NCBI GenBank assembly: GCA_040768745.1
Contig: JAXGMI010000003.1
Location: forward strand, 1-64,000
Direction: 5' to 3'
Source: Desulfomicrobium sp.
GTDB taxonomy: Bacteria; Desulfobacterota; Desulfovibrionia; Desulfovibrionales; Desulfomicrobiaceae
DNA: 64,000 bases
Part shown: piece by piece, positions 416 through 15,062 of the stretch
How the letters are laid out: each line of letters begins with the position of its first letter
Position numbering within the stretch: position 1 is the first letter of the stretch
The notes under the pieces: model-generated
Database searches by the model: none
Seen by the model: only the letters and a program-made list of their open reading frames with translations
Told to the model about the DNA's origin: nothing
Made by a program: the position numbers and the translations under genes

Positions 416-453
416 TGTAAAAAAATCCAACACCGTTGTCGAATAATCTTACA
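416..453. promoter_or_regulatory. Paired TGT-N11-ACA putative enhancer-binding-protein sites
   Basis: TGTAAAAAAATCCAACA (416-432) and TGTCGAATAATCTTACA (437-453), starts 21 bp apart; same architecture at 1088/1109 and 5587/5608. Confidence 0.65.
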
Positions 454-1087: not shown

Positions 1088-1125
1088 TGTAAAAAACACC
1101 AGTATTCCTGTCGGGAAACTTTACA
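1088..1125 (+). promoter_or_regulatory. Putative upstream activator sequence for PEP-CTERM gene 1
   Basis: TGTAAAAAAC half-site at 1088 and TGTCGGGAAACTTTACA at 1109-1125, about 64 bp upstream of a sigma54 promoter. Confidence 0.7.
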
Positions 1126-1188
1126 TTTTTCTCCATGCCGGACCTGAAAAACAGTCTGCAACCCTCACCCGGCAACGATTCATGACTT

Positions 1189-1204
1189 TGGCATGGACTA
1201 TGCT
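1189..1204 (+). promoter_or_regulatory. Sigma54 (-24/-12) promoter
   Basis: TGGCATGGACTATGCT matches TGGCACG-N4-TTGCW with exact GG-N10-GC spacing, 50 bp before the start codon. Confidence 0.75.
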
Positions 1205-1253
1205 GAAAGCGTCATAACTTGAATAATGATGTCTCATCTTAACGGAGGTAGTT

Positions 1254-2108
1254 ATGCGGCGCATCACACAAATTCTGGCAATGGCCCTGGTCACCCTGCT
1301 GATGACAACCAGCGCATGGGCATGGACGTCCTGGACGTGGAATGTGGATACAATCGGGTACACGGCTTATGTAGGCTCCATTGTTCCCACCACTACCGTC
1401 AATTTTAATGAACTTGTCAACCTCACCAATGCGGGTGATTTTCCTGTACAGGCCTATATCACCCAGGATCTGGGGGGAAATGGCGTCCTCTCCGACGGCG
1501 ACACCTTTACTGAGTTCGGGGCAGTAAACGTTGTGGGAAAGGATTCCGCTGCGACGTTCTTTGACGCTGAAGGTAATCCAGCCTACATCTACTCCGTGTT
1601 CGAGAACCTGTCCGGCTACATTGATAACGTGGGCGTGGATCTGTCGGGTAACCCTGTTTACGACATTACCTTCACACCCACCGGCTCCGAGACCATCGAA
1701 CTCCGCTACACCGACGACCTGACCCTGACCACGTATGATGGCGTGATCGCTTCCTTCAATCTGATCAGGGCTGGCGCGACCGGCTTCGTGTTGGATGAAG
1801 GCGCAGGGCTCAACAGCGGGTTCAGTTTCACTATCGGAATGAAGGATGTCATGGTGGACGGTTTCTACGAATTCCCTATCGGATTCGCCGAGGACATCCT
1901 CGCAGATAACGGCCCCAATTCCATCCTGGGTTTCCTGGACTTCAACGCCAACATCATTGGAATCGACACCGAAAACCGAAATTCCTGGGAAATCACCGTC
2001 GAGAACTCGGGCACCATGCGGCATGTCGCCACCCCCGAGCCCGGCACCATGCTTCTCCTGGGCGTCGGCCTCCTGGGCCTGGGCGCAGTGGCCCGCCGCC
2101 GCAGATAA
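1254..2108 (+). CDS. PEP-CTERM sorting domain protein (possibly PepA-like)
   Basis: RBS GGAGG, signal peptide MRRITQILAMALVTLLMTTSAWA, C-terminal TPEPGTMLLLGVGLLGLGAVARRRR (PEP motif, TM helix, basic tail). Confidence 0.92.
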   Translation: MRRITQILAMALVTLLMTTSAWAWTSWTWNVDTIGYTAYVGSIVPTTTVNFNELVNLTNAGDFPVQAYITQDLGGNGVLSDGDTFTEFGAVNVVGKDSAATFFDAEGNPAYIYSVFENLSGYIDNVGVDLSGNPVYDITFTPTGSETIELRYTDDLTLTTYDGVIASFNLIRAGATGFVLDEGAGLNSGFSFTIGMKDVMVDGFYEFPIGFAEDILADNGPNSILGFLDFNANIIGIDTENRNSWEITVENSGTMRHVATPEPGTMLLLGVGLLGLGAVARRRR

Positions 2109-2132
2109 GCAGCTCAATCCTCCACAAGCAGC

Positions 2133-2164
2133 AGGCCGGGAAGCTCGACTTCCCGGCCTTTTTT
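2133..2164 (+). terminator. Rho-independent terminator
   Basis: Hairpin AGGCCGGGAAG-ctcga-CTTCCCGGCCT followed by a T run. Confidence 0.85.
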
Positions 2165-2417
2165 ACGTCCTGCGCCGGCCTGTTACATTTCCCGACAGAG
2201 ACGTACATCCACGGCAACCCGGCAAATCTTCCCCCAAAAATACGCCACGGACTGCGGCGCCAAAAGGATGCGCAACCCTCCCCGCTTGGATTCCAAAAAA
2301 CCTTCCCTCCGCTCGCGGAAGTTCCTCCCGAGCTCAATAAATAGGGACAGAGCCAACGCGGGGCAGCATGGCCACCCCTTCCCGGCCTGATCTCCGCTCG
2401 TCCTGAACGCCCCGTCT

Positions 2418-2637
2418 ACCCTGAGCCCCCCGCTCACTCCGAGCCCCCCGTTCACCCTGAGCGCGCCCGTTCACCCTGAGCGCGAAGCAGTCGAAGGGTC
2501 GAAGGGTCACTCTGAGCGCGCCCGGTCACCCTGAGCGCGAAGCAGTCGAAGGGTCGAAGGGTCCAAGGGTCACTCTGAGCGCGCCCGGTCACCCTGAGCG
2601 CGAAGCAGTCGAAGGGTCGAAGGGTCGAAGGGTCACC
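2418..2637 (+). repeat. REP-like/minisatellite cluster 2
   Basis: Three copies of caccctgagcgcgaagcagtcgaagggtcgaagggtc plus shorter ctgagcgcgcccg units. Confidence 0.85.
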
Positions 2638-2752
2638 CCATTCCCCCCTTACACAACCCGACTTTTCCTTGTCCGCTGGTTGACACTGGCCCATACATCC
2701 CGGAAAAATGACTCTGACCCTGAGAACCACCAATAACAACAAGGGGGCCTTC

Positions 2753-3550
2753 GTGCATTCGACCCAACGTTTTATCCTCAAGTTCCTCGGCCCGATGTGC
2801 AGCCTGGCATGGATTGCCATCCTCTTGTCTGCCGTCGCTCATGCCCAGCCCTCGGGCCGGGAAGTGGCCCAACTGGTTTATGACCGCTATGTGGGCGAGG
2901 ACGCGGTCTCGCGACAAATCATGGAACTCGTCCCGGCCGACGGGCAGAAACGGGTCCGGGAATTGACCATCACAGCGACGGCCCGCAACGGATCGCGCAG
3001 AACCCTGCTGCGTTTCACCTCCCCGGCGGACATCCAGGGCACCGGATTTCTGGCGGTGGAGGACGGCCAGGGCGGCACGGAGCAGTTCCTGTACCTGCCG
3101 GCCCTGAAGCGGACCCGCCGCATCATGACGGGGCAGAAAAGCCGCAGCTTCGTGAACACCGATTTCACCTACGAAGACATGGAGCGCCGGCCCGTGGACT
3201 ACTCCGAACACGCCATCATGGGCGAGGGAACCCTGAACAACGTCTCCTGCTGGATCCTGGAAAGCCGGCCCAAACCCGGCACCGAGTCCCAGTACTCCCT
3301 GGTCCGGGCCTGGGTGGCCAAGGATATCCACGTGACCCTGCGGACGGATTTTTTCGCTGGAGGTCAGGAGCCAGTCAAACGCTTCAGCGTACTGGCACTG
3401 GAAAACATCCAGGACGTCTGGACAGAAACCAAGGTGGTCATGGCGGACCTGCAATCAGGGCACAAAACCGTCCTGGAAACTTCGGAAATCAGGTACAACT
3501 CGGGAGTGCAGGACAGCTCCTTCACCCAGCAGGCCCTGGAGCACTGGTAG
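2753..3550 (+). CDS. Outer membrane lipoprotein-sorting (LolA-like) periplasmic protein
   Basis: Signal peptide ending AVAHA; motifs RFTSPADIQGTGFL, LYLPALKRTRRI, SFVNTDFTYEDM typical of the LolA-like family found with MMPL genes; start uncertain (2708 ATG or 2753 GTG). Confidence 0.85.
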   Translation: MHSTQRFILKFLGPMCSLAWIAILLSAVAHAQPSGREVAQLVYDRYVGEDAVSRQIMELVPADGQKRVRELTITATARNGSRRTLLRFTSPADIQGTGFLAVEDGQGGTEQFLYLPALKRTRRIMTGQKSRSFVNTDFTYEDMERRPVDYSEHAIMGEGTLNNVSCWILESRPKPGTESQYSLVRAWVAKDIHVTLRTDFFAGGQEPVKRFSVLALENIQDVWTETKVVMADLQSGHKTVLETSEIRYNSGVQDSSFTQQALEHW

Positions 3551-3698
3551 CAACCCTGCCGAGGCGCTGTTCCGCCTCCACAGTCCAGCCGGGGCGTCAG
3601 CGACGGCAAACGGGCCGTAAACGCAGGGATGCCGCCAGGTTTTTCTTGGACAATGTCAAGGATGCTCACACCCAGCTACGGATTTAGAACACGCAGTC

Positions 3699-3715
3699 TG
3701 TCGAAATATTTTACA
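3699..3715 (+). promoter_or_regulatory. Putative upstream activator sequence for PEP-CTERM gene 2
   Basis: TGTCGAAATATTTTACA; a second TGT-N11-ACA at 3654-3670. Confidence 0.7.
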
Positions 3716-3766
3716 CATCCCATCTTTGAGGAATGATTTATTCAATCGAAACAATATGTTGAATTA

Positions 3767-3782
3767 TGGCACACCATTTGCT
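3767..3782 (+). promoter_or_regulatory. Sigma54 (-24/-12) promoter
   Basis: TGGCACACCATTTGCT, near-perfect consensus. Confidence 0.8.
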
Positions 3783-3862
3783 TATTCATCCCTGTCTGTA
3801 CAGAGATGGGATTTTCTCACAAGCAAAATTTTCAAAGCACCTTTTTACAAATGGGGTGGGGT

Positions 3863-4657
3863 ATGAAGAAACTGATCATTACTCTGGTGGCACTGACGAC
3901 CCTGGGCCTCGCCGGGAACGCTTTTGCCTTGGTAACGTACTGGGATTACACCCTGTCCGCAATTTTCACTAACAGCAAGCTCGATAACGGTAATTCGTTG
4001 GGGGACGGGACGACCCTGATCTGGGGCCAAAGTACCGGCTACGGACGGAGTAGCCTGGTCATCGACCCATCCGTGATCGATGACACCGTAGAGACGTTCA
4101 TCGGCGGCGGCGTTATTCCCAATACCTACTGGGCCGACTCCGTCGACTTGACCCACAACAACAACCCGATCACCGGCTCGAGCTTGGCCACCACGACCTT
4201 GAAGGTGTCCGTTACTCTCGATCCTGCCGTGCCCGACAACCCTACCCTTCCTGTGCAGACCTTTGACTTCGACATCGACTTCACGGAAACGCCCAATATC
4301 GGCGAACCTCTAGAATGGGATATCTTTGCCCTGCTGTCCGGCTTCCCGAACTTCAACTTCATGTACGATGCGGGTGACGGCGACGGGATTCTTAAGTACT
4401 TCGTCAACGTCTTCCCGGGTGACGGCAGCTCCCTTTACTATCTGAACGAGGATCAACTCGCTCTGGCCGGACTGCCCGCGGGTGCGAAGATCCTGGGCTT
4501 CGCCACCAGAGAAAGGCAATCGACCACCCTGCCCTTCTCCTTCACCATCTCCACAGAGCCCTTTAACCACACTGTCCCCGAGCCTTCAACCGCAATCCTT
4601 CTTGGAGCCAGCCTGATGGGCATAGCCGCCTTTGGCCGCAAGATCCGCAAGAACTGA
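3863..4657 (+). CDS. PEP-CTERM protein, THxN-type
   Basis: Signal MKKLIITLVALTTLGLAGNAFA; LTHNNNPI and FTETPN motifs; C-terminal VPEPSTAILLGASLMGIAAFGRKIRKN. Confidence 0.92.
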   Translation: MKKLIITLVALTTLGLAGNAFALVTYWDYTLSAIFTNSKLDNGNSLGDGTTLIWGQSTGYGRSSLVIDPSVIDDTVETFIGGGVIPNTYWADSVDLTHNNNPITGSSLATTTLKVSVTLDPAVPDNPTLPVQTFDFDIDFTETPNIGEPLEWDIFALLSGFPNFNFMYDAGDGDGILKYFVNVFPGDGSSLYYLNEDQLALAGLPAGAKILGFATRERQSTTLPFSFTISTEPFNHTVPEPSTAILLGASLMGIAAFGRKIRKN

Positions 4658-5087
4658 TCCTTTTCCTCAAACCTGCATATCCACGACGGCCCGGGTGCAC
4701 AGCGCCCGGGCCGCTGCATTTTAAAGGATAACCACTCAGTTTATTTAATAAATTTGCTTAATTTTTATGGTTCATCCGGCTGGAGCGTACTTTTGACAAA
4801 ATGAAAGGACATGGGGTTAATCAAATCTTCACGCCAATAAAAACGAAGAGGATGAACCGCCATGTTGACCTGTCCGGCTATTTTTAGACCACTCGAAACC
4901 CGAGATAGGTTTCTCCCTCAACCACAAGGACCTCTTGAGCATTTGACCATGGAGTACGGATATCGGGGCTCCTACACCGGTTGCGTTACGGCAGGCCGAA
5001 GATCCCTTACGTACAGACGGGTGGAGACGCCCCCAGGGGCGCAGTCGCAGACGGACTGGGGCGAATTCTCCGGCGTGAGGGTCGCGT

Positions 5088-5348
5088 GCCTGGATGGCCC
5101 GGGATATCCACGTGACCCTGCGGGCGGATTTTTTCGCTGGAGGTCAGGAGCCAGTCAAACGCTTCAGCGTACTGGCACTGGAAAACATCCAGGAAGTCTG
5201 GACAGAAACCAAGGTGGTCATGGTGGACCTGCAATCAGGGCACAAAACCGTCCTGGAAACTTCGGAAATCAGGTACAACTCGGGAGTGCAGGACAGCTCC
5301 TTCACCCAACAGGCCCTGGAGCACTGGCAGCTCTCGGGCCAGTGTTAA
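5088..5348 (+). pseudogene. Duplicated 3' fragment of the LolA-like gene
   Basis: 5088-5327 aligns to 3308-3547 at offset 1780 with about 7 mismatches in 240 bp; the TAG stop is replaced by CAG; no 5' part. Confidence 0.9.
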
Positions 5349-5365
5349 GGACGCACTGATCAAGT

Positions 5366-5543
5366 CCTTCGACTGTTCTACCCTTCGACCCTTCGACTGC
5401 TTCGCGCTCAGGGTGGCCGGCGCGCTCAGGGCGAACGGGCGCTCAGACTGAGCGGGAAGGGTGAGCTTGTCGATTCCGTAGGGGGTGAGCTTGTCGAACC
5501 ATGATTCCGTCGCGCGGAGCCCGACTTTCGCGCGGAGCCCGAC
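5366..5543 (-). repeat. REP-like cluster 3, inverted relative to clusters 1 and 2
   Basis: cccttcgacccttcgactgcttcgcgctcagggtg is the reverse complement of the core unit; also gtgagcttgtcga x2 and tcgcgcggagcccgac x2. Confidence 0.8.
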
Positions 5544-5586
5544 ATTCGGTTTTGAGCCTGTCGAAAATTAGAATATTAGGATAAAC

Positions 5587-5624
5587 TGTAAGATTTTTTT
5601 GGAAGCTTGTCGGAATATCTTACA
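5587..5624 (+). promoter_or_regulatory. Paired putative enhancer sites upstream of the barrel/biosynthetic genes
   Basis: TGTAAGATTT half-site at 5587 and TGTCGGAATATCTTACA at 5608-5624 (21-bp offset; outer palindrome TGTAAG...CTTACA). Confidence 0.65.
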
Positions 5625-5898
5625 GTTTTGAATGACCTTCGCTTGACTTTTCTGATCGGAAAAAATGATCAAAGCTCTGCCCGGGAGTGCTGGCAGACCT
5701 CCGGACGCGCAACGATCACCCTAAAAAGCCTGGTGAACGGATGCATCCCACGTCCCGAATCGGTCCTTGCTGACTTTGCATCGCCTGCCGTTTCATTTAG
5801 ATTGACACCGTCGGCATGGGGTTGCAACTTACAAGACTGAAATCGAAACCGTGCCAAGACGTCGCATGCAGCAATGCGTCCATACCCAGGAGAATCGG

Positions 5899-7788
5899 AT
5901 GGTTCCTGAAGCCCGCCCCAGCAACCCGAACGTCAAGCAACCCCATGCCCGGCCAGCCCCGGATTTCCTCTGGCGGTTCCTCGGCGCCTTTCTGCTGCCC
6001 CTGCTGCTCCTCCTGAGCCCCGTCCCGGCCGCGCCAGCCTCGCCACCCGTCGTTGTTTCCGATCTGGCGCTGCCTGCCCACCACGACGAGCAAACTCTGA
6101 TCCTCACCCTGTCCGGCCAGCCGCACAGCGTGAGGTCATTCGTGATGAGCAAACCTTCACGCCTGGCTGTGGACATCGCCGCGGCCCGGCTCCAAGGCGA
6201 CAACCGCAGCCTGCCTGCCCAGCACGACCTGATCCACGGCGTCCGCATCGCACAGTTCAAGAAGGACACGGTGCGCGTCGTCCTGGACCTGAAACGGGAA
6301 GTCCGGCACCTGGTCTCCTCCCGCCCAGCGCCAGGAGACCCCACCAGGCACGAAATCATCGTCAATCTCCTCCCGCAAGCGCCCGATGCGGCCCTCCCTG
6401 GGCCGAGCCCTGCCCCGCTCCTGCCCCAGGCCGCCCTGGACCCGGCCGGCGGGATCGCATCCGAGCCGGCGCCCGCCCTGTCGTTGGCCAAGAGGGAGGG
6501 GGAGCAGAACAGGAAAATCGTCTTCTCCGCTGACGACAAATCCTCCCAGAGACCGCAGGAAGAGACCTCGCCCTGGGGGGCGATGGACTTCTCGGGATTT
6601 GCGATGGCCAAAGGAACCCAGGAAATGCACGAGTCCGGGGATTCCGAGCAGGCCAGGATGTTCCGCAACACGCTCCGGCTGGAGGGAAAATGGACCCCGC
6701 CGGCGTGGGCCAATGCCCAGCAGCCCAAGGGCGAGACCTCCAATACCTTCGTGCTGGCCTCGGTCCAGTCCGACTATCTGTGGTTCGGCCCGACCCCTTC
6801 CTCGGACGACTACGACCTGGAACTCTACGAAGGCTATCTGTTCCGGGCCACGCCGGACTGGGATCTGCGCCTGGGCCGGCAGATCGTGCGCTGGGGCAAG
6901 GCGGACCAGATCAGCCCGGTGGACAACATCAACCCCCAGGACATGCGCGAATTCTTCCTGCCCGACCTGGAGGACCGCAAGATCCCCAACTGGATGGCCA
7001 GGGTCCGCCTCTTTCCCGACCTGTTCACCCTGGAGGGCGTCTTCGTCCCCTTTTTCGAGGAAAACAGATTCGACTACACGGGCAGCAAGTTCGCCCTGCT
7101 GGGCAGCGAACCGAACAACCTGCGCATCAACGAATCCGAACCCGGCAACGGCCTGGACAATGCGGCCCTGGGCCTGCGCACGTCGACGACCGTGGCCGGC
7201 TGGGACTTCGCCCTGAGCTACCTGTACACCAGGGAAAAGTCCCCCCGCCTGCGCCTCGATCCCGCCTCGCCCGCAGGGCCGACCCTGCATGCCGACTACC
7301 CGCGGCAGCACATCTTCGGGTGGGAATTCGAGACAACCTTTGACAAATTCGGCTTCCGCGGAGAAGGGGCCTACTTCGACGGGCAGTCCATGACCACCGA
7401 AAGCCTCGACTCCGTGTCCACGCCCGTGCTGCATTCTGTTCTGGGCCTGGACTACATGGGCGAACAGGACTGGTACGCCAACGTGCAGCTGACCCATCAG
7501 CATGTTTTCGAGTACGAGTCGGACATCCTCTTCTCCAGGCGTGACAACTTCTACCTCAACGGGGAAGTCAACCGCGAGTTCTGGAGGGGCGACCTCATGC
7601 TCAAGCTGCGCTACGCCCTGGACATCCGGGACGGGGGGATGTTCCTGACCCCGGAGGCCATCCTGAAGTCGTTCAGAAACCTCGAACTCTCCCTGGGCGC
7701 CTACCTGTTCTTCGGCCCTTCGGACACCCTTTTCGGCCGCTACCAGGATAACGACCAAGCCTTCCTGAAGGCCACGTACCGTTTTTGA
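5899..7788 (+). CDS. AMIN-domain-fused outer membrane beta-barrel (DUF1302-like)
   Basis: Hydrophobic signal region; AMIN-like segment (PSRLAVDI...VRIAQF...VRVVLDLK); Pro/Ala linker; barrel motifs LRLGRQIVRWGKAD, DNINPQD; C-terminal aromatic KATYRF; start uncertain. Confidence 0.8.
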   Translation: MVPEARPSNPNVKQPHARPAPDFLWRFLGAFLLPLLLLLSPVPAAPASPPVVVSDLALPAHHDEQTLILTLSGQPHSVRSFVMSKPSRLAVDIAAARLQGDNRSLPAQHDLIHGVRIAQFKKDTVRVVLDLKREVRHLVSSRPAPGDPTRHEIIVNLLPQAPDAALPGPSPAPLLPQAALDPAGGIASEPAPALSLAKREGEQNRKIVFSADDKSSQRPQEETSPWGAMDFSGFAMAKGTQEMHESGDSEQARMFRNTLRLEGKWTPPAWANAQQPKGETSNTFVLASVQSDYLWFGPTPSSDDYDLELYEGYLFRATPDWDLRLGRQIVRWGKADQISPVDNINPQDMREFFLPDLEDRKIPNWMARVRLFPDLFTLEGVFVPFFEENRFDYTGSKFALLGSEPNNLRINESEPGNGLDNAALGLRTSTTVAGWDFALSYLYTREKSPRLRLDPASPAGPTLHADYPRQHIFGWEFETTFDKFGFRGEGAYFDGQSMTTESLDSVSTPVLHSVLGLDYMGEQDWYANVQLTHQHVFEYESDILFSRRDNFYLNGEVNREFWRGDLMLKLRYALDIRDGGMFLTPEAILKSFRNLELSLGAYLFFGPSDTLFGRYQDNDQAFLKATYRF

Positions 7789-8044
7789 CGTAGCCGCACC
7801 CGACAGCGGGCATCAGATCGCGCACCTGCCAGACCATTGGAGAGCAGGCATGGCGGCGTCCTGGGCAGACAGTCAGCATGGTTTTCCATGCAATGGCACC
7901 CTTTCCTGGTATGATTCTTGATAATGAATCTCATCGGCCCTGGGCGTCCCTGGATGCGGGATATCTGGAATTTGCAAAAGCCCATGAATCCAGGTAGAGG
8001 AACTCGGCTTTACCTTGGAACGACAAAATCTTCATAGAGAGAAC

Positions 8045-8929
8045 ATGGAACTGCAACGAACTGCCTGGCTGCCTTTTATCGGCACACTGCCTCCAAAAAC
8101 AAGCTTCGCCCCTGGTCGCCGTGATATCGACTACGTCTTCAAAATCGCGGACTCGATGGATGAGCTGCTGCAGGCCTTCCACCTTCTCTACCAGGAATAC
8201 CTGAGCGTCGGATATATCAGCGAAAAACCGGGCCAGGTCCTGTTCACCAAATACCACCTCTTGCCAGAGACCTGCGTCTTCATCGCCAAATCCCAGAAAA
8301 ACGTTCTTTCCACGACCACACTGGTCCATGATTCCGGGTTGTTCGGACTGCCCATGGACGGGCTGTACGGAGACGAACTCAGCACACTGCGCAAAAAGCG
8401 CCGCAACATCGTGGAGGTCGGATCGCTCGCTTCCGACAGGCATACGTTTTCCCGTTCCGGCATCAACAACTTCATGAAGCTTATTTTGCTGTATTGCGTA
8501 TTCTCCAATGTCGATGACGGTCTGGTCATGGTCAACCCCAGGCACGTGCAGCATTACAAAAGCAGATACGGATTCAACGTCTTCGGAGAAGAGAAATTCT
8601 ACCCCCAGGTCAATGCCCCTGCGGTGGCATTGCACGTTGATGTCCGGGCAATGCGAGAGAAGTTCAATAGCGCCTACTGCAACTTCCCATTCAGGCAGGA
8701 GTTGTACGCGAACTACCTGTCCATGAAGATCGTCCTCAGCAAGAACATACTCAACGCCTTCGATAACGACGCCACCGCGTACATGCATTCCAACCCCATG
8801 AATGCACGTTTCTTCAATCAGTTTCTGTGCGGAAAAAACGGGGACCTCTCTGAACTTCCCCTTGAATGCAAGAACTACCTCAGAAAAGTGTATCCTGGCA
8901 TCAAAATCGAGAACAGCATCGACCTGTAG
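8045..8929 (+). CDS. N-acyl amino acid synthase, FeeM-like GNAT (OxzA-like), copy 1
   Basis: Motifs ELLQAFHLLYQEY..VGY, LFGLPMDGLY, VEVGSLAS, MVNPRHV, NAPAVAL; alternative TTG start at 8015. Confidence 0.78.
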   Translation: MELQRTAWLPFIGTLPPKTSFAPGRRDIDYVFKIADSMDELLQAFHLLYQEYLSVGYISEKPGQVLFTKYHLLPETCVFIAKSQKNVLSTTTLVHDSGLFGLPMDGLYGDELSTLRKKRRNIVEVGSLASDRHTFSRSGINNFMKLILLYCVFSNVDDGLVMVNPRHVQHYKSRYGFNVFGEEKFYPQVNAPAVALHVDVRAMREKFNSAYCNFPFRQELYANYLSMKIVLSKNILNAFDNDATAYMHSNPMNARFFNQFLCGKNGDLSELPLECKNYLRKVYPGIKIENSIDL

Positions 8930-9124
8930 TGTTGCGCGATCCCCACCCTCTCCAGCATCTCGATTCCGCCGCCCTCTCCCTTGACACGCATCGTTGTTTC
9001 CCAGAGTGTTGAAAGCGATTATCATTTAATATATTATTTTCTGGGGCGCGGACTGGAAACTGCCCGACAGCCCGTCTGATCCTGTCTTTCACTCAGTCTT
9101 CTGGGCTGGGAACAAGGAGCAGCC

Positions 9125-10000
9125 ATGACCGACCAACCAGACCAACTCCTCCAGGAACGCCGCCGGTCCATCCGACTCCGCAGATCTTCCCTGCTCAAGG
9201 CCAAATTGGACGACATCGACCGGCCGAACATCAAGGTCGCCGAAACCCGGGACGAGTTGTCCCAGTCCTTTGCCCTGGTCTACCGGGAGTACCTCGCCTC
9301 CGGATACATCAAGACCCCCTCCCCGGCCGAAATGCACTTCAGCGTCTTCAACTTTCTGCCAGCCACCTGCGTTTTCATCTACAGAAGCTACCTCACGGTC
9401 ATCTCCACCTTGACCCAGATCTTCGACAGCGAGCTGTTCGGACTGCCCATGGACTCCCTGTATCGCGCGCAACTGGACGAACTGCGCGCCCAGGGCCGCA
9501 GGATCTCCGAGCTTTCCGCCCTGGCCACCCCGAGGGAGGTGCGCTGGTGCAACCTGATGGTCTTTTTGTGCAGGATGATGTTCGAATACTCCAGGATGAA
9601 GAAGATCGACGACATCTGCATCATGGTCAACCCCAAGCACGTCAGTTTCTACAAGACGTTGTTCCTGTTCGAGGACTTCGGCCCGGAGCGATTTTACGGA
9701 GCAGTGGGCGCTCCAGCCGTGGCCCTGCGCATCAACATGGACAGCATCCAGGAGAAAAGCCTGGAGAAATACAGGGATTTCGAAGTGGACGGCAATGTCC
9801 ACGACTTCTTCTGCAAGATAAATTCGACGATGCAGGAACTGCAATCCGGATGGTCCTTCTATGAAAAGAGGCATCCCATGCACCCTGAGGACGCCCGATT
9901 CTTCCTGGAGAGCAAAAAGGACATCCTTGAAAAGCTGACCCCACAGCAGCGGGAATACCTCGCCAACCTCTATCCTTTCCTGGCCCCGACCCGGGCATAG
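9125..10000 (+). CDS. N-acyl amino acid synthase, FeeM-like GNAT (OxzA-like), copy 2
   Basis: Paralog of 8045-8929: ELSQSFALVYREY..SGY, LFGLPMDSLY, ISELSALA, MVNPKHV, GAPAVAL; RBS AAGGAG. Confidence 0.8.
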   Translation: MTDQPDQLLQERRRSIRLRRSSLLKAKLDDIDRPNIKVAETRDELSQSFALVYREYLASGYIKTPSPAEMHFSVFNFLPATCVFIYRSYLTVISTLTQIFDSELFGLPMDSLYRAQLDELRAQGRRISELSALATPREVRWCNLMVFLCRMMFEYSRMKKIDDICIMVNPKHVSFYKTLFLFEDFGPERFYGAVGAPAVALRINMDSIQEKSLEKYRDFEVDGNVHDFFCKINSTMQELQSGWSFYEKRHPMHPEDARFFLESKKDILEKLTPQQREYLANLYPFLAPTRA

Positions 10001-10021
10001 CCGTTGTCCTGAGCAGAACAC

Positions 10022-12301
10022 ATGCGACACATCATCAGCCTCATCACCGGCTATCCACTCGCGTCCCTGATCCTGGCCCTGGCCCTGGCCGCGCCCTTTC
10101 TGGCCCAGCTGCCGGGCGTGCGGACCGTGGACAACGTGGACTACTTCACCGTGGAAGACGACCCGGATGTCGCCTTCTATGATTCCATCAAAGCAACCTT
10201 CGGAAACGATGAGTTCTTCGCCGTCGTCTTCACCAGCCCCAAGCTCTTCACGCCCGGCCTGTTGCGCATGGTTGCGGACCTCACCGCTGATCTCGAGTCC
10301 ATTCCCGAAGTCCGCAAGGTGCAGAGTCTGGCCAACGTGGACTACATTCTCGGCTCCGCAGAGTATTTCGAGGTGCGCCCCTTTCTGGAAAAGATCCCCG
10401 ACGATCCCGAGGCGTTGGGCATCCTCAGGGACCAGGCCCTGGGCAACCCCCTGTACGTGAGCAACCTCATCTCAAGGGACGGGCAGACCACGGCCATCGT
10501 GGTCTTCCCTAAATCCCACGACTCTTCCGACGGCACATTCCGCCAGCGCCTCCTGGAACAGACCAACAAGATGCTGCGAAACCACCAGGGGGTGGTGGAC
10601 AAATTCCACCTGGCCGGCTGGACCGTGACCAACTTCAGTCTCAGCCAGTACATGAAATCGGACGTGGCCACCTTCATTCCGGTCACCTATCTGTTCATCG
10701 CCGCAACCATCTGGCTGGCTTTCCGCAACCTGCGTCTGACAGCCCTGGCCATCGCCAACGTGTCCGCATGCACAGGCGCCACCATGGGCCTCTTCCCCCT
10801 GCTCGGCATCACCCTGAACAACGTGACCACCATCGTACCACCGCTGATCATGGCGTTGTCTTTGACTGACACGGTGCACATCCTTTCCCATCTGGACAAG
10901 GGACTGCTGGTCAAGCACGGGTCCCCAGCCAAGGCCCTGGACGCGGTCCTGCAGCGCGTCCTGGTCCCCTGTTTCCTGACCAGCCTGACTACGGCCGTGG
11001 GTTTCATCTCCCTGGTCACCAGCGACATCCCGCCCATCAAGGAGTTCGGCTACGTGGCCTCGGCCGGCATGGTCTTCGAATTCGTCTTCTCCTTCCTGCT
11101 CCTCCCCCCCATGCTGCTGTTGCTCTGCCCGGCACAGAAGATCTTCACCCATCACCGCCAGGACCTGGGGGTCAGCTCGTGGCTGGAACGACTCTTCCAT
11201 TTCGTCCGGGCCCACGCCCGAACCCTGTTTGTCGCCTTCATGCTCCTGCAAGGGATCGCGCTGTGGCTCGCCTCCACCATCCAGGTGGAAACCAACCTTC
11301 TGGAATACTTCAAACCCTCCAGCCCCCTGCGGCAGGAACTCAAGTACGTGGAGTCCACCCTGAGCGGGGTGGGCACTCTGGACATCTCCCTCAAGGCCAC
11401 GGAACGCGACGCCTTCAAGGATCCGGCCAACCTGGCCGTGCTGGAACGCATCCAAAGCTTCGCCGAAACGCTCCCCGGCGTGGACAGGAGCATGTCCTTT
11501 GTGGACTTTCTGAAAGACATGCACATGTCCTTCCACGACGAAAACCCGCAATTTTACCATATTCCGGACAGCCGGGAACTGGTCTCCCAGTACCTGCTGC
11601 TCTACGACTCCGACGACATCGCGGAGCTCATCACCACGGAGTACGACCACGCCCGCATCCTGCTGCGCATTTCCGAGTACGGCTCTGCGGGTCAGGCCGG
11701 AATCATCGCCGCCCTGCGGGACTTCATCGACAGCACGGAACAACGTGGACTGGACATCCGGGTCACTGGCCGGGCCGTGCAGGACGTGAACATCATCGAC
11801 GCCCTGGTCCAGGGGCAGGTGGAAAGTTTGGCCACGGCCGCGGGAATAATCACGGTGATCATGTTCTTTGCCATGCGCTCCCTGTCCATCGGCTTCCTGA
11901 GCCTCATTCCGAACGTCTTCCCCATCGCCCTGAACTTCGGAATCATGGGCGCCCTGGGCATCCCCCTGAACACCTCCACGGCGCTCATTTCCGCTGTGGC
12001 CCTGGGCATCGCCGTGGACGACACCATCCACTTCCTGACCGAATACAGGCTCAGCCGTGCCGACGGCCTCGCAATCCCGGAAGCCATACATCGCAGCATT
12101 CGGGAAAAGGGCATAGGCATCTGTGCCTCCTCGGTGATCCTGGTTGCTGGATTCGGCGTGCTTACCCTCAGCAGCTTCGTGCCCACCTTGACCTTCGGAG
12201 GGTTGAGCTCGGTGATCATGATCACGGCCTGGATCGGAGACATGATCCTGCTCCCGGCCGCCATGCTCGCCTTCCAGCGCAACAGGGCGCAAGCCCGCTG
12301 A
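10022..12301 (+). CDS. MMPL/RND family lipid exporter
   Basis: 759 aa with two repeats of TM, large periplasmic loop, 5 TM; LSLTDTVHIL and GIAVDDTIHFL signatures. Confidence 0.9.
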   Translation: MRHIISLITGYPLASLILALALAAPFLAQLPGVRTVDNVDYFTVEDDPDVAFYDSIKATFGNDEFFAVVFTSPKLFTPGLLRMVADLTADLESIPEVRKVQSLANVDYILGSAEYFEVRPFLEKIPDDPEALGILRDQALGNPLYVSNLISRDGQTTAIVVFPKSHDSSDGTFRQRLLEQTNKMLRNHQGVVDKFHLAGWTVTNFSLSQYMKSDVATFIPVTYLFIAATIWLAFRNLRLTALAIANVSACTGATMGLFPLLGITLNNVTTIVPPLIMALSLTDTVHILSHLDKGLLVKHGSPAKALDAVLQRVLVPCFLTSLTTAVGFISLVTSDIPPIKEFGYVASAGMVFEFVFSFLLLPPMLLLLCPAQKIFTHHRQDLGVSSWLERLFHFVRAHARTLFVAFMLLQGIALWLASTIQVETNLLEYFKPSSPLRQELKYVESTLSGVGTLDISLKATERDAFKDPANLAVLERIQSFAETLPGVDRSMSFVDFLKDMHMSFHDENPQFYHIPDSRELVSQYLLLYDSDDIAELITTEYDHARILLRISEYGSAGQAGIIAALRDFIDSTEQRGLDIRVTGRAVQDVNIIDALVQGQVESLATAAGIITVIMFFAMRSLSIGFLSLIPNVFPIALNFGIMGALGIPLNTSTALISAVALGIAVDDTIHFLTEYRLSRADGLAIPEAIHRSIREKGIGICASSVILVAGFGVLTLSSFVPTLTFGGLSSVIMITAWIGDMILLPAAMLAFQRNRAQAR

Positions 12302-12402
12302 AAAGGGCACAGAGAGTGGCAACCTGATCCTCCCCCACATCAACCAGGGGCATGACGCCGCGCCTTCCGGGCTTCTCCCCATGAACACGACAAGGACTTG
12401 CC

Positions 12403-14439
12403 ATGGGACGCGATGAACATCTGGCCACGTTGCAGACCCTGGGGCTTTCCACCCCATCCGCCTACCGGGACGCCGCCTTTTCCCGCAACATCGGCCTGCT
12501 CTCCCCCGGGGAGCAGGAACGCCTGGCCCGGGCCAGGGTGGCCATCCCCGGCATGGGCGGGGTGGGCGGGGTGCACCTCATCAATCTCGTGCGCACGGGC
12601 ATCGGTTGCTTCAGCCTGGCTGACTTCGACCGTTTCGACCCGGTCAACGTCAACCGCCAGTTCGGCGCCAGGGTGCCCGCATTCGGCCGGCCCAAGCTGG
12701 AGGTCATGATCGAGGAGGCCCTGAGCATCAATCCCTTCCTGGACATCGCCCCCTACCCCGCCGGCCTGACCCCCCAGAACCTGGAAGTCTTCCTGACCGG
12801 CGTGGACGTGGTCCTGGACGGGCTGGACTTCTTCCAGTTCGACATCCGCCGGGCCCTGTTCAACACGGCCCGGGCCATGGGCATACCGGTGATCACGGCC
12901 GGGCCCCTGGGCTACAGCTCGGCCTTGCTGGTCTTCAGCCCCCAGGGCATGGGGTTCGACCAGTACTTTGACATCAGCGACGGCATGGCGGACGAACAGA
13001 AATACCTGCGCTTCGCCATGGGCCTGGCGCCCAGGCCGACGCACATCAGATACATGGACCTGACCAGGGTGGACCTCAAAGGGGGCAAGGGGCCGTCCCT
13101 GAACATCGCCTGCCAGCTCTGCTCGTCCCTGGCCGCCACCGAGGCCGTGCGCATCATCCTGGGCAAGCCGGGACTCGAACCCGTGCCGCACTTCACCCAG
13201 TTCGATCCCTTCCTCAAAATCTATCGTCAGGGATGCCTGCGCCGGGGAAACCGCTCCCTGGTCCAGCGGGCCAAGCTCTGGTACGTGCAGAACGTTCTCC
13301 TCAAGTCCGCGGCCAAGGCCAGGGTCGACGCCGCAGAGCCGCCCCGGATCGCGGCAGCAGAGTTGCGAGGCCTGCCCGAGGCCGCAGCGGACTATCTGCT
13401 GTGCGCCGCCGTCCAGGCCCCTTCCGGGGACAATGTCCAGCCATGGGGATTCAGGACCACGGACAGCTCCGTGGACCTGCTCCTGAACCCCGACGTGGAC
13501 ACGTCCTTCTTCAACGTCCGCCAGGTCGCGTCCATCATCTCCTGCGGGGCTGCCATGGAAAACATCCGTTTGGCCTCCCTGACCCTGGGCATGGACGCCG
13601 CCGTCGACCTGCTGCCCGATCCCGGGCAGCACAACCTCATGGCCAGGTTCCGCCTGCAGCCGGGAAGCCCCGATCCCGACCCCCTGGCCCAGCACATCTG
13701 GACTCGCTGCACCAACCGCCGCCCCTACTCCAGATTGCCGATCCCGGAATGGGTACAGGCCGACCTCCAAGACCGCATCCAGGAAGTTCCCGAAGCCCAG
13801 CTGCACCTGCTGGCCGACAGGCCGCAGCTCCGGAAGCTGGCCAGGCTGGTCTACATGGCCGACCGGATCCGCACCGAACACCGGGGGCTGCACGAACATC
13901 TCAACTCCATGATCCGCTTCAGCGACATGGAGGCCCGCAAAACCAGGGATGGATTCCCCCTCGGGAACCTGGAGGCAGGACCCGCCGGAGAGGTGTTCCT
14001 GCGCCTGACCAGGCCATGGCCGGTCATGCGCGCCGTGAATGCCGTGGGGTTGGGGCGGATGGTGGCCATGCATTCGGCCCAGGGCATCCTGGCCAGCGGC
14101 GCGGCCGGAATGGTCGTCGTGTCCGGGCTGGAGCCCCGGGACTTCCTGCGCGGAGGACAGGCCCTGCAACGGGTCTGGCTGGCCCTGACCCACCACGGAC
14201 TCCAGATGCAGCCCATGGCCGCCATACCCCTGTTCTGGCTGCGTTGGCTGTGGGAGGGGCCCCAAAGCTTCTCGCCGGGCCATCAGAAATTGCTGGAAAA
14301 GGTGTGGAGCGGGTTCAAGGCGCTGTTCCCCGGTGCGGACTTCAGAACCCAGGGACTGGTCATGCTCTTCCGCACCGGCTACGGCCCGGGCATACGCCAC
14401 CGCACCCTGCGCAGGGAAGTTCCCGATTTCATGAGGTAG
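12403..14439 (+). CDS. ThiF adenylyltransferase-nitroreductase di-domain enzyme (OxzB-like)
   Basis: N-terminal FSRNIG...VAIPGMGGVG, DFDRFDPVNVNRQ (ThiF/E1 ATP site); C-terminal APSGDNVQPWGF, RCTNRRPY, GQALQRVWLALT (FMN nitroreductase fold). Confidence 0.85.
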   Translation: MGRDEHLATLQTLGLSTPSAYRDAAFSRNIGLLSPGEQERLARARVAIPGMGGVGGVHLINLVRTGIGCFSLADFDRFDPVNVNRQFGARVPAFGRPKLEVMIEEALSINPFLDIAPYPAGLTPQNLEVFLTGVDVVLDGLDFFQFDIRRALFNTARAMGIPVITAGPLGYSSALLVFSPQGMGFDQYFDISDGMADEQKYLRFAMGLAPRPTHIRYMDLTRVDLKGGKGPSLNIACQLCSSLAATEAVRIILGKPGLEPVPHFTQFDPFLKIYRQGCLRRGNRSLVQRAKLWYVQNVLLKSAAKARVDAAEPPRIAAAELRGLPEAAADYLLCAAVQAPSGDNVQPWGFRTTDSSVDLLLNPDVDTSFFNVRQVASIISCGAAMENIRLASLTLGMDAAVDLLPDPGQHNLMARFRLQPGSPDPDPLAQHIWTRCTNRRPYSRLPIPEWVQADLQDRIQEVPEAQLHLLADRPQLRKLARLVYMADRIRTEHRGLHEHLNSMIRFSDMEARKTRDGFPLGNLEAGPAGEVFLRLTRPWPVMRAVNAVGLGRMVAMHSAQGILASGAAGMVVVSGLEPRDFLRGGQALQRVWLALTHHGLQMQPMAAIPLFWLRWLWEGPQSFSPGHQKLLEKVWSGFKALFPGADFRTQGLVMLFRTGYGPGIRHRTLRREVPDFMR

Positions 14440-14568: not shown

Positions 14569-14883
14569 TCAGGCCAGGGCTATCCCGCCCCAGATCACGC
14601 CAGCGACAACCCCGAAATTGAAGGCAAAAACCCAGCGTGTCCCGGTATGGTGGATCCGGTACACGGACACGGCCAGGGCAGCTATCCCGATGACCGTCAC
14701 CACGGCCCAGCCCAGACTGGCTCCGCCCCATTCCAGGATGGCTTTGGCCGCATAGACCTGCCCATAGCCCAGCAGCATGCCGTGGGCCACGGAGACGACG
14801 CCGAACTGGCTGAACAGGTCGTCCAGGGCCTGCATGGCTTGGCAGACAAGGATGGCGGCAACGGCCAGCATGAGTTCCTTCAT
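14569..14883 (-). CDS. Small hypothetical membrane protein
   Basis: About 104-aa ORF with several hydrophobic segments. Confidence 0.5.
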   Translation of the reverse strand: MKELMLAVAAILVCQAMQALDDLFSQFGVVSVAHGMLLGYGQVYAAKAILEWGGASLGWAVVTVIGIAALAVSVYRIHHTGTRWVFAFNFGVVAGVIWGGIALA

Positions 14884-15062
14884 TGAATCCCTTATCTCAC
14901 AGAGAGCCGATGCTGCGCAAGACGCGTCTCGTTCCACCGGGGCTGTGTGTCGTAAAACGTTTCACGCGGCCAAACTTCTCCAGTGTCCAGCACCCCTTTT
15001 TTCCCGTTCATCCTGAGCAGCGAGCACCGCGAGCATGTCGAAGGATGTCCCCGGAGCGCCCA

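Follow-up and report, generated by a model that had tools for sequence, protein, structure and literature searches.

What does a set of genes for acyl-amino-acid chemistry and transport do among genes for PEP-CTERM surface proteins? The question is raised by a 64,000-nucleotide stretch of DNA from Desulfomicrobium sp. (GCA_040768745.1, contig JAXGMI010000003.1, positions 1 to 64,000; hereafter the window), which is the start of contig C3 in a 3.09-Mb genome. An open reading frame (ORF) scan of the window revealed eight co-oriented ORFs on the forward strand, filling positions 1254-14439 without interruption (the island; Table 1), and in a profile search all the families named for them scored over the Pfam cut-offs, so the gene list of a first-pass annotation made from the letters alone stands in full. 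Two ORFs encode PEP-CTERM proteins. The other six form a cassette encoding a LolA-like carrier, an AMIN-fused outer-membrane barrel, two FeeM-type N-acyl amino acid synthases (FeeM1 and FeeM2), an MMPL transporter, and a ThiF-nitroreductase fusion; each island gene has one copy in the genome, except for a duplicated LolA 3' end. The cassette is real, conserved, optional, and made of known parts. We lean slightly toward the reading that it makes an N-acyl aromatic amino-acid lipid and exports it to the outer surface as a free amphiphile aiding biofilm or floc formation.

The acyltransferases both matched PF21926 (156 and 153 bits, cut-off 27). FeeM2 is 36% identical to FeeM1, and a conserved Glu, which we take to be the catalytic residue, aligned with Glu96 of chain 2G0B and was kept in 22 of 22 aligned rows. 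Neither enzyme matched TIGR03694 at E 0.01, nor did any other gene in the genome. The link to exosortase-associated N-acyl amino acid synthases drawn in the first-pass annotation thus survives as co-location with PEP-CTERM and exosortase genes, the enzymes themselves being FeeM-type and not TIGR03694. In the fusion protein, profiles and a structure model place the ThiF domain N-terminal to the nitroreductase domain in one chain. Against NCBIfam, the protein scored over the cut-off of PRK08223 (357 > 266), just under that of PRK14851 (1122 < 1170), and below that of the TrzS/Rv1355c family NF005901 (273.7 versus 476 bits). The ThiF motifs GxGGxG, D74/D76, NxNRQ, K98, and D139 and the flavin-domain motifs APSGDNxQ, R435/R439, and Q603 were invariant in 20 of 20 aligned homologs; the likeness to Asp217/Arg540/Gln651 of TrzS is at motif level only. 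The model matched ThiF and Acg folds, the second domain being an Acg-like flavin oxidase domain. AclA (PDB 9EGB) was a structural neighbor of the ThiF domain; a paper on AclA was not found.

This architecture resembles that of the OxzAB, TyzABC, and TrzAS systems, in which an N-acyltransferase lies upstream of a ThiF-nitroreductase fusion with ATP-binding and flavin motifs and for which Acg is the nearest solved oxidase fold; in the island, two FeeM genes lie upstream of the fusion gene, with the MMPL gene between FeeM2 and the fusion gene. OxzA and OxzB make tyrazolones and phenazolones (bioRxiv 10.1101/2020.06.11.147165), and OxzB is covered in a review of ThiF proteins (PMC12596934). TyzABC and TrzAS also make oxazolones, via an O2-dependent oxidase (PMC10404671, PMC12856293), and the tyz genes likewise neighbor an MmpL gene, mmpL9 (PMC10404671).

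Variants of the enzyme set were seen elsewhere. In the congeneric genome G020 (L034:4230-9377), the transport genes and a FeeM pair occur without the ThiF-nitroreductase gene, and genes for a GT2 glycosyltransferase and a p-cresol-methylhydroxylase-type flavoprotein adjoin MMPL. FeeG presumably belongs to this flavoprotein family. The G020 locus may encode a FeeG-like pathway that ends in a glycosylated enamide, and the replacement of the fusion gene by these two genes hints at a tyrosine substrate. FeeG is an oxidative decarboxylase of N-acyl tyrosines (PMC8762209). A 989-aa FeeM-ThiF-nitroreductase triple fusion, annotated as ThiF family only, is encoded on a plasmid of D. vulgaris (L126:19107-22076; NC_005863.1, DVU_RS16045) between prsT and THxN PEP-CTERM genes, with a sigma-54-like site upstream. 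At nine loci (L064-L067, L075, L081, L050, L091, and L092), FeeM is fused to a cyclic-nucleotide-binding domain beside a ThiF gene; this fusion was checked with Pfam for L050, L065, and L092.

The carrier, barrel, and pump (hereafter the trio) would span the cell envelope. The barrel model (predicted local distance difference test score, pLDDT, 87) has 18 predicted strands and is OprD/Occ-like, and a fold search returned the general 18-strand porin class only, which assigns no function (best Z 21.5, root-mean-square deviation 3.7, 307 residues aligned); AMIN was fused to four of 10 other barrels checked. The solved relatives of the carrier are structural-genomics entries with single chains only. 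A sequence search found no solved relative of the MMPL protein, whose best NCBIfam match, TIGR00921, fell below its cut-off (174 versus 352). Modeled together, carrier and barrel scored 0.62, versus 0.00 for the best of three controls; this mark was attained by 116 of 157 solved pairs and two of 215 mismatched pairs, counts that are rough because alignments of our own making were used. The runs shared at least 76% of contacts, with partner pLDDT of at least 87, and the invariant carrier residues P64 and R96, numbered as in the 238-aa mature model, lay within the predicted interface. The barrel contacts in the model are short turns and both termini, which we read as the periplasmic face. These models support, and do not show, binding of the carrier to the barrel.

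A survey of LolA homologs compared close (at least 41% identity) with distant relatives of the carrier among 80 metagenome loci, 35 loci under 9 kb being excluded. An acyltransferase or ThiF gene was found near 20 of the 27 close homologs versus 0/18 distant ones, and this enzyme link persisted after clustering at 70% identity (10/15 versus 0/7). PEP-CTERM or XrtA-system genes were near 17/27 and 1/18, respectively. The distant homologs keep the barrel (18/18) and MMPL (16/18). In FastTree phylogenies, which contain long branches, the enzyme-linked MMPL proteins (17 rows, support 98) and LolA proteins (10 rows, support 97) formed clades apart from family paralogs, and in other lineages a different LolA clade and a different barrel are paired with a MacB/FtsX ABC pump. 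These sequence comparisons support the view that the transporter belongs to a subclade of its own that goes with the enzymes. In genomes of the same family, distant trios (MMPL, LolA-like, and DUF1302) were also observed beside TonB-dependent receptors, O-methyltransferases, and, in one case, a nonribosomal peptide synthetase (NRPS) (L029-L030, L036-L042).

Among 24 genomes of the same genus, the cassette was present in eight, inside the exosortase/exopolysaccharide (EPS) locus. Six carry LolA, barrel, FeeM1, FeeM2, MMPL, and ThiF-nitroreductase in order, G005 has one FeeM gene, and in G019 the set lies over two contigs. ThiF-nitroreductase genes were found in 11 of the 24 genomes and FeeM genes in 13, and all 11 of the former have an exosortase. 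In all seven relatives with both on one contig, xrtA lies 40-45 kb from the cassette, the cassette is divergent from prsT-sugar transferase-wza-wzz, and PEP-CTERM genes stand at the far end. The genome analyzed here has seven PEP-CTERM genes and one exosortase, with xrtA, epsI, prsK, and prsR at the end of contig C2. The C2 and C3 contig ends showed no overlap, and the assembly yielded no prsT, wza, or wzz; the adjacency of the two contigs is therefore drawn from the relatives, and the three genes would lie in the gap. G011 and G023 carry the enzymes without the trio, and G017 (at a contig end) and G020 carry the trio and FeeM without ThiF-nitroreductase. This distribution shows an optional module with a swappable tailoring enzyme.

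To examine prevalence more widely, we used profiles built in this analysis and took the best 80 of 450 confirmed ThiF-homolog loci, which span Desulfobacterota, Nitrospirota, Planctomycetota, Acidobacteriota, and Pseudomonadota. An acyltransferase gene was present in 63 of the 80, LolA plus barrel in 16, and MMPL in 18. PEP-CTERM genes were found in 49 (39 with a profile trained on Desulfomicrobium sequences alone), and within 3 kb of ThiF in 38; by comparison, 3.5% of random 22-kb windows of the present genome contain a PEP-CTERM gene, which is a loose control, such genes being more numerous in other genomes. PEP-CTERM genes accompany ThiF in Desulfobacterota, Nitrospirota, Planctomycetota, Acidobacteriota, and Alpha-, Beta-, and Gammaproteobacteria. 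The commonest non-core neighbors of the ThiF homologs were TIGR03694-like GNAT genes (32/80). The ThiF tree gave no root or order of events because its outgroup was not one clade. In a sample of 400 genomes from the phylum, surveyed for ThiF (with many matches to the ThiF half alone), exosortase, PrsK, and TIGR03694, ThiF was found in 19 genomes, seven of them from one family. Exosortase was present in 18 of these 19 (9/9 families), compared with 148/400 overall. ThiF was found in only 18 of the 148 exosortase genomes and three of 58 PrsK genomes, the PrsK search having scored two candidates per genome; TIGR03694 was found in 12/400 genomes and 4/58 PrsK genomes. The enzymes are thus exosortase-associated yet optional. 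The role of lipid anchor or modifier for PEP-CTERM proteins, one of the options raised in the first-pass annotation, is unlikely to be a general one given how few exosortase genomes carry ThiF, and the lipid is probably an optional extra.

The island had also been described as sharing one upstream motif. We trained a motif matrix on sites upstream of PEP-CTERM genes and scored the whole genome, finding eight sites of at least 25 bits, four in the island (437, 1109, 3699, and 5608) and four near PEP-CTERM genes elsewhere. The motif is thus real and beyond chance, and it is known: it equals the 17-nucleotide (nt) motif 1 of Haft et al. 2006 (PMC1569441) and the DVUA0057/PrsR site of D. vulgaris (PMC3333781, PMC4641369). 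For both PEP-CTERM genes, motif 1 is followed by a sigma-54 site at the expected spacing of 30-90 nt (1109/1190 and 3699/3769), as in the XrtA/PrsK-PrsR regulon, whose xrtA, epsI, prsK, and prsR genes the genome has, and the box probably drives these sigma-54 promoters. The cassette differs from that regulon in that no such pair precedes its transporter and enzyme genes in the window: no canonical sigma-54 promoter was found downstream of the box at 5608, the LolA-like gene is preceded only by a weaker, reversed box (15.8 bits), and the matrix scan found nothing above 2 bits before FeeM1, FeeM2, MMPL, and ThiF-nitroreductase. Upstream of FeeM2 in several relatives, and upstream of the D. vulgaris fusion gene, there are sigma-54-like sites; the window has none before FeeM2.

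A single operon under one motif was rejected, there being no box before the four downstream genes and hairpins after both PEP-CTERM genes; these hairpins are terminator-like, so transcription of the island as a single unit is improbable. In 10 of 10 relatives examined, LolA is preceded by a strong box at a distance of 90-190 nt, and the TTGAC hexamer of the sigma-70-like promoter before LolA recurs in eight of nine aligned relatives. Kazakov et al. assign the 17-mer at the cassette head to the divergent gene, which from its position would be prsT, and, by analogy with relatives, the target of the box at 437 in the window is probably a divergent gene that lies past the start of the contig. Co-regulation through the cassette-head box was rejected on account of this published assignment, a reverse sigma-54 match pointing that way, and the sigma-70-like promoter before LolA. 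Direct PrsR control of the cassette is not supported here, given the published assignment, the LolA promoter, and the boxless downstream genes. Under the old tags that we infer for the D. vulgaris fusion gene, DVUA0033-0035, no entry was found in either of the two PrsR regulon supplements. Co-regulation of the whole island by one motif is therefore not supported, since the paired sites stand only at the PEP-CTERM genes and hairpins split the island. Assembled contigs from two RNA runs of one study (X17 and X18) cover PEP-CTERM gene 1, LolA, PEP-CTERM gene 2, barrel, MMPL, and ThiF-nitroreductase; they neither show nor rank expression.

Table 1. Genes, regulatory sites and other features of the Desulfomicrobium sp. 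island (window coordinates)
Feature	Position	Strand	Details
PrsR-type enhancer box (Haft motif 1)	437..453	+	26.9 bits; paired site 416-432
PrsR box	1109..1125	+	sigma-54 -24/-12 match 63 nt downstream (~1190-1205), before PEP-CTERM gene 1
PEP-CTERM surface protein 1	1254..2108	+	Pfam PEP-CTERM; signal peptide; weak, below-cut-off PepA likeness
Terminator-like hairpin after PEP-CTERM gene 1	2133-2159		
Sigma-70-like promoter (TTGACA) before LolA-like gene	2680..2709	+	
LolA-like periplasmic carrier (PF17131)	2753..3550	+	LolA_like E 6e-57; signal peptide without lipobox; likely start GTG 2753, longest ORF from 2708
PrsR box	3699..3715	+	sigma-54 match ~3769-3784, before THxN PEP-CTERM gene
THxN-family PEP-CTERM protein	3863..4657	+	Pfam PEP-CTERM; NF038125 over cut-off
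Terminator-like hairpin after THxN PEP-CTERM gene	4687-4713		
Duplicated LolA-like 3' fragment	5085..5331	+	247 nt, 96% identical to 3305-3551; pseudogene scar
PrsR box, top score in genome	5608..5624	+	28.0 bits; before barrel gene
AMIN-DUF1302 outer-membrane barrel	5851..7788	+	AMIN E 8e-11, DUF1302 E 8e-21; C-terminal Phe; alternative start ATG 5899 possible
FeeM-type N-acyl amino acid synthase 1	8045..8929	+	FeeM E 8e-46; conserved Glu kept; longest ORF from 8015
FeeM-type N-acyl amino acid synthase 2	9125..10000	+	FeeM E 9e-45; conserved Glu129
MMPL/HAE3-like RND (resistance-nodulation-division) inner-membrane transporter	10022..12301	+	MMPL E 2e-24; transmembrane Asp motifs DTVH, DDTIH
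ThiF-nitroreductase fusion, OxzB architecture	12403..14439	+	ThiF E 6e-42, Nitroreductase E 2e-5

In the pathway that we propose, the two FeeM-type enzymes would acylate an amino acid with a fatty acyl group, Tyr or Phe being the likeliest substrates. The ThiF domain, whose motifs are present, would then adenylate the carboxylate and close an oxazolone ring, by analogy with OxzB, TyzBC, and TrzS, and the flavin domain may desaturate the ring given O2 or another acceptor. A proton-driven MMPL pump would take the lipid out of the inner membrane, and the soluble LolA-like carrier would cross the periplasm with it and is predicted to dock on the periplasmic face of the barrel. The AMIN domain, which has a cell-wall-holding function, would tether the barrel. 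The lipid, or a hydrolyzed N-acyl (dehydro)amino acid, would thus reach the cell surface, the site of matrix construction by PEP-CTERM proteins and EPS; the hydrolyzed form is considered since related clusters give ring-open N-acyl dehydrotyrosines (PMC12479983). A role as a matrix component, the other option of the first-pass annotation, seems the likeliest. Of the integrated make-activate-export system first proposed for the island, the make-and-export logic is retained, with an enzyme-tied transporter subclade and predicted carrier-barrel docking, and co-regulation by one motif is given up.

Several observations weigh against this pathway. Product, activity, transport, and export direction are predictions from genes and models, and the likeness to OxzB is one of architecture, motifs, and fold rather than of named OxzB or TyzB sequences. 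The known oxidases require O2 (PMC10404671, PMC12856293) while the host lineage is anaerobic, and mycobacterial oxazolones were found in cell pellets and not in supernatants (PMC10404671). Conservation on the barrel side of the predicted interface does not exceed that elsewhere (0.38 versus 0.39). The trio is dispensable, as it does not lie beside the enzymes in G011, G023, or the plasmid pDV of D. vulgaris Hildenborough. No PEP-CTERM gene was found in 31 of the 80 ThiF-homolog loci, some of them short contigs and six of them a Desulfobacterales clade (L064-L067, L075, and L081) with no PEP-CTERM marker seen. All parts occur together in only six of the 80. Since the sampled loci and genomes are related, the counts also overstate independence.

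Rather unlikely, in our view, is a diffusible product that, like the stieleriacines, acts as a signal or antimicrobial after release by the exporter, with the PEP-CTERM link reflecting shared biofilm timing rather than a structural role. Stieleriacines affect how other species form biofilms, and a PEP-CTERM gene lies in the stieleriacine cluster (PMC7293339), a Stieleria locus (L121) is among the ThiF homologs, and oxazolones are antibiotic-inducible (bioRxiv 10.1101/2020.06.11.147165). However, among the clustered neighbors of the 80 loci no receptor or regulator recurs at near the acyltransferase rate, de Rond et al. report no phenotype from added oxazolones, and a chaperone-to-barrel route would better suit a membrane-retained lipid. 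An activated product is the basis of another proposal, which we judge unlikely: the exported oxazolone would be an acyl donor lipidating PEP-CTERM proteins or EPS amino sugars. The closeness of PEP-CTERM genes to ThiF (within 3 kb at 38 of the 80 loci) fits such a donor, as do the ready hydrolysis and alcoholysis of oxazolones, the accumulation of the saturated cyclized intermediate when O2 is limited (PMC12856293), and ten transporter-linked loci that keep ThiF, with nitroreductase not detected in the sequence examined; the exosortase acceptor was also called unknown (PMC1569441). Against it stand the scarcity of ThiF among exosortase and PrsK genomes and of TIGR03694 among PrsK genomes, G006, which has exosortases and a PEP-CTERM gene with no FeeM or ThiF-nitroreductase match, and G020, where seven PEP-CTERM genes and the trio persist in the absence of ThiF-nitroreductase. 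In established chemistry, moreover, an oxazolone is an electrophile, and a sortase-like intermediate needs a nucleophile. An elaboration that we find equally unlikely has the azlactone made by ThiF shielded in the LolA-like carrier, delivered to the barrel, and consumed in the acylation of amines at the surface, carried by EPS or PEP-CTERM proteins. This would be an ATP-powered extracytoplasmic lipidation in which, in anaerobes, O2 would switch the product from the reactive saturated ring to the desaturated one.

That the trio imports other hydrophobic compounds, or pumps them out for detoxification, and only happens to neighbor the enzymes is quite improbable in our view. Genomes without the enzymes do have such trios, at ~30% identity, next to TonB receptors, O-methyltransferases, or an NRPS, and AmeABCD serves monoterpene tolerance (PMC6394551). 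Against this reading, the enzyme-linked trio falls into separate clades and follows the distribution of the enzymes (20/27 versus 0/18), and the MMPL gene is set between FeeM2 and ThiF-nitroreductase with gaps of 21 and 101 nt. We consider it very improbable that the PEP-CTERM locus is a recombination hotspot gathering unrelated surface genes with no functional link. Gene order around the cassette is variable, and local repeats, the duplicated fragment, and a strain-variable PEP-CTERM slot are present, yet the link recurs across four phyla and three proteobacterial classes, and distant trio paralogs lie near PEP-CTERM genes at only one of 18 loci.

Oxazolone chemistry, the synthase-PEP-CTERM link, and an AmeABCD-type exporter have each been published already. 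Compared with OxzAB, the cassette has two FeeM-type synthases, a complete set of transport proteins for inner membrane, periplasm, and outer membrane, and an exosortase locus, and its host is an anaerobic deltaproteobacterial lineage, whereas the 56 OxzB proteins reported are alpha-, beta-, and gammaproteobacterial. The exosortase-linked synthases (TIGR03694; Craig, Cherry, Brady 2011) also lie beside PEP-CTERM/exosortase genes; the cassette differs in its PF21926 FeeM-type enzymes and in its tailoring and export genes. In Methylomonas LW13, loss of such a synthase (ExoAT) abolishes a polysaccharide band (PMC11072679), and a table of the Rubrivivax EPS locus lists ThiF genes with no comment on them (PMC3684757). 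The stieleriacine and thalassotalic acid clusters likewise have several synthases, ThiF, nitroreductase, and PEP-CTERM and EPS genes nearby (PMC7293339, PMC12479983), and a biofilm link was already proposed for the former (PMC7293339); they differ in that ThiF and nitroreductase are separate genes and the isolated products are ring-open dehydrotyrosines, and the Planctomycete loci examined, unlike the cassette, have no MMPL/LolA/barrel set. AmeABCD of Castellaniella defragrans (HAE3 RND, DUF1302, LolA-superfamily DUF1329, and COG4447), which exports hydrophobic compounds (PMC6394551), similarly unites an HAE3-type pump, a LolA-fold periplasmic protein, and a DUF1302 outer-membrane protein in one cassette. 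The present cassette has instead a compact PF17131 carrier, an AMIN-fused barrel, and a biosynthetic rather than catabolic link. No ORF for the fourth subunit, AmeC/COG4447, was found in 1088-14439, the part of the genome searched for it. A full-text search covering few subscription journals found no paper uniting oxazolone enzymes, the MMPL/LolA-like/DUF1302 set, and PEP-CTERM genes.

The surroundings of the cassette show signs of rearrangement. Direct and inverted copies of a GC-rich repeat, which has an 8-nt tandem unit, occupy 225-401, 2393-2642, and 5366-5442, junctions where gene order departs from that of relatives; an exact 24-nt core of the repeat has five copies, all in the island and none elsewhere in the genome. 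In run X4, 3551-4537 and 4663-6089 are replaced by 1042 and 556 other letters, respectively, and X3 has the second joint too. The THxN PEP-CTERM ectodomain is swapped between strains (X4 contigs versus the window), and the LolA duplicate is skipped in X3 and X4 contigs. Between the island and recD2, a 122-aa hydrophobic ORF (14569-14937, reverse strand) has no family match, and small ORFs resembling it lie near the island in G005, G011, and G023. At the C2 end, epsI and prsK are separated by ~4 kb of small genes that resemble toxin-antitoxin genes on visual inspection and by a methyltransferase-like remnant (L002:13600-17750), and a 547-aa ORF between a PEP-CTERM gene and trigger factor (L002:6871-8514) has no Pfam or NCBIfam match.

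What bacterial N-acyl oxazolones do has been called a major unresolved question (PMC12856293). For them, and for the presence of acyl-amino-acid synthases beside exosortase genes, the cassette offers a candidate route and destination, the outer membrane and biofilm surface, together with a specific predicted carrier-barrel interface. Because a FeeM-ThiF-nitroreductase fusion is encoded, in a locus of similar kind, on a biofilm-associated plasmid of the tractable D. vulgaris Hildenborough, the question is directly testable in sulfate reducers, organisms relevant to sludge flocs and corrosion biofilms.

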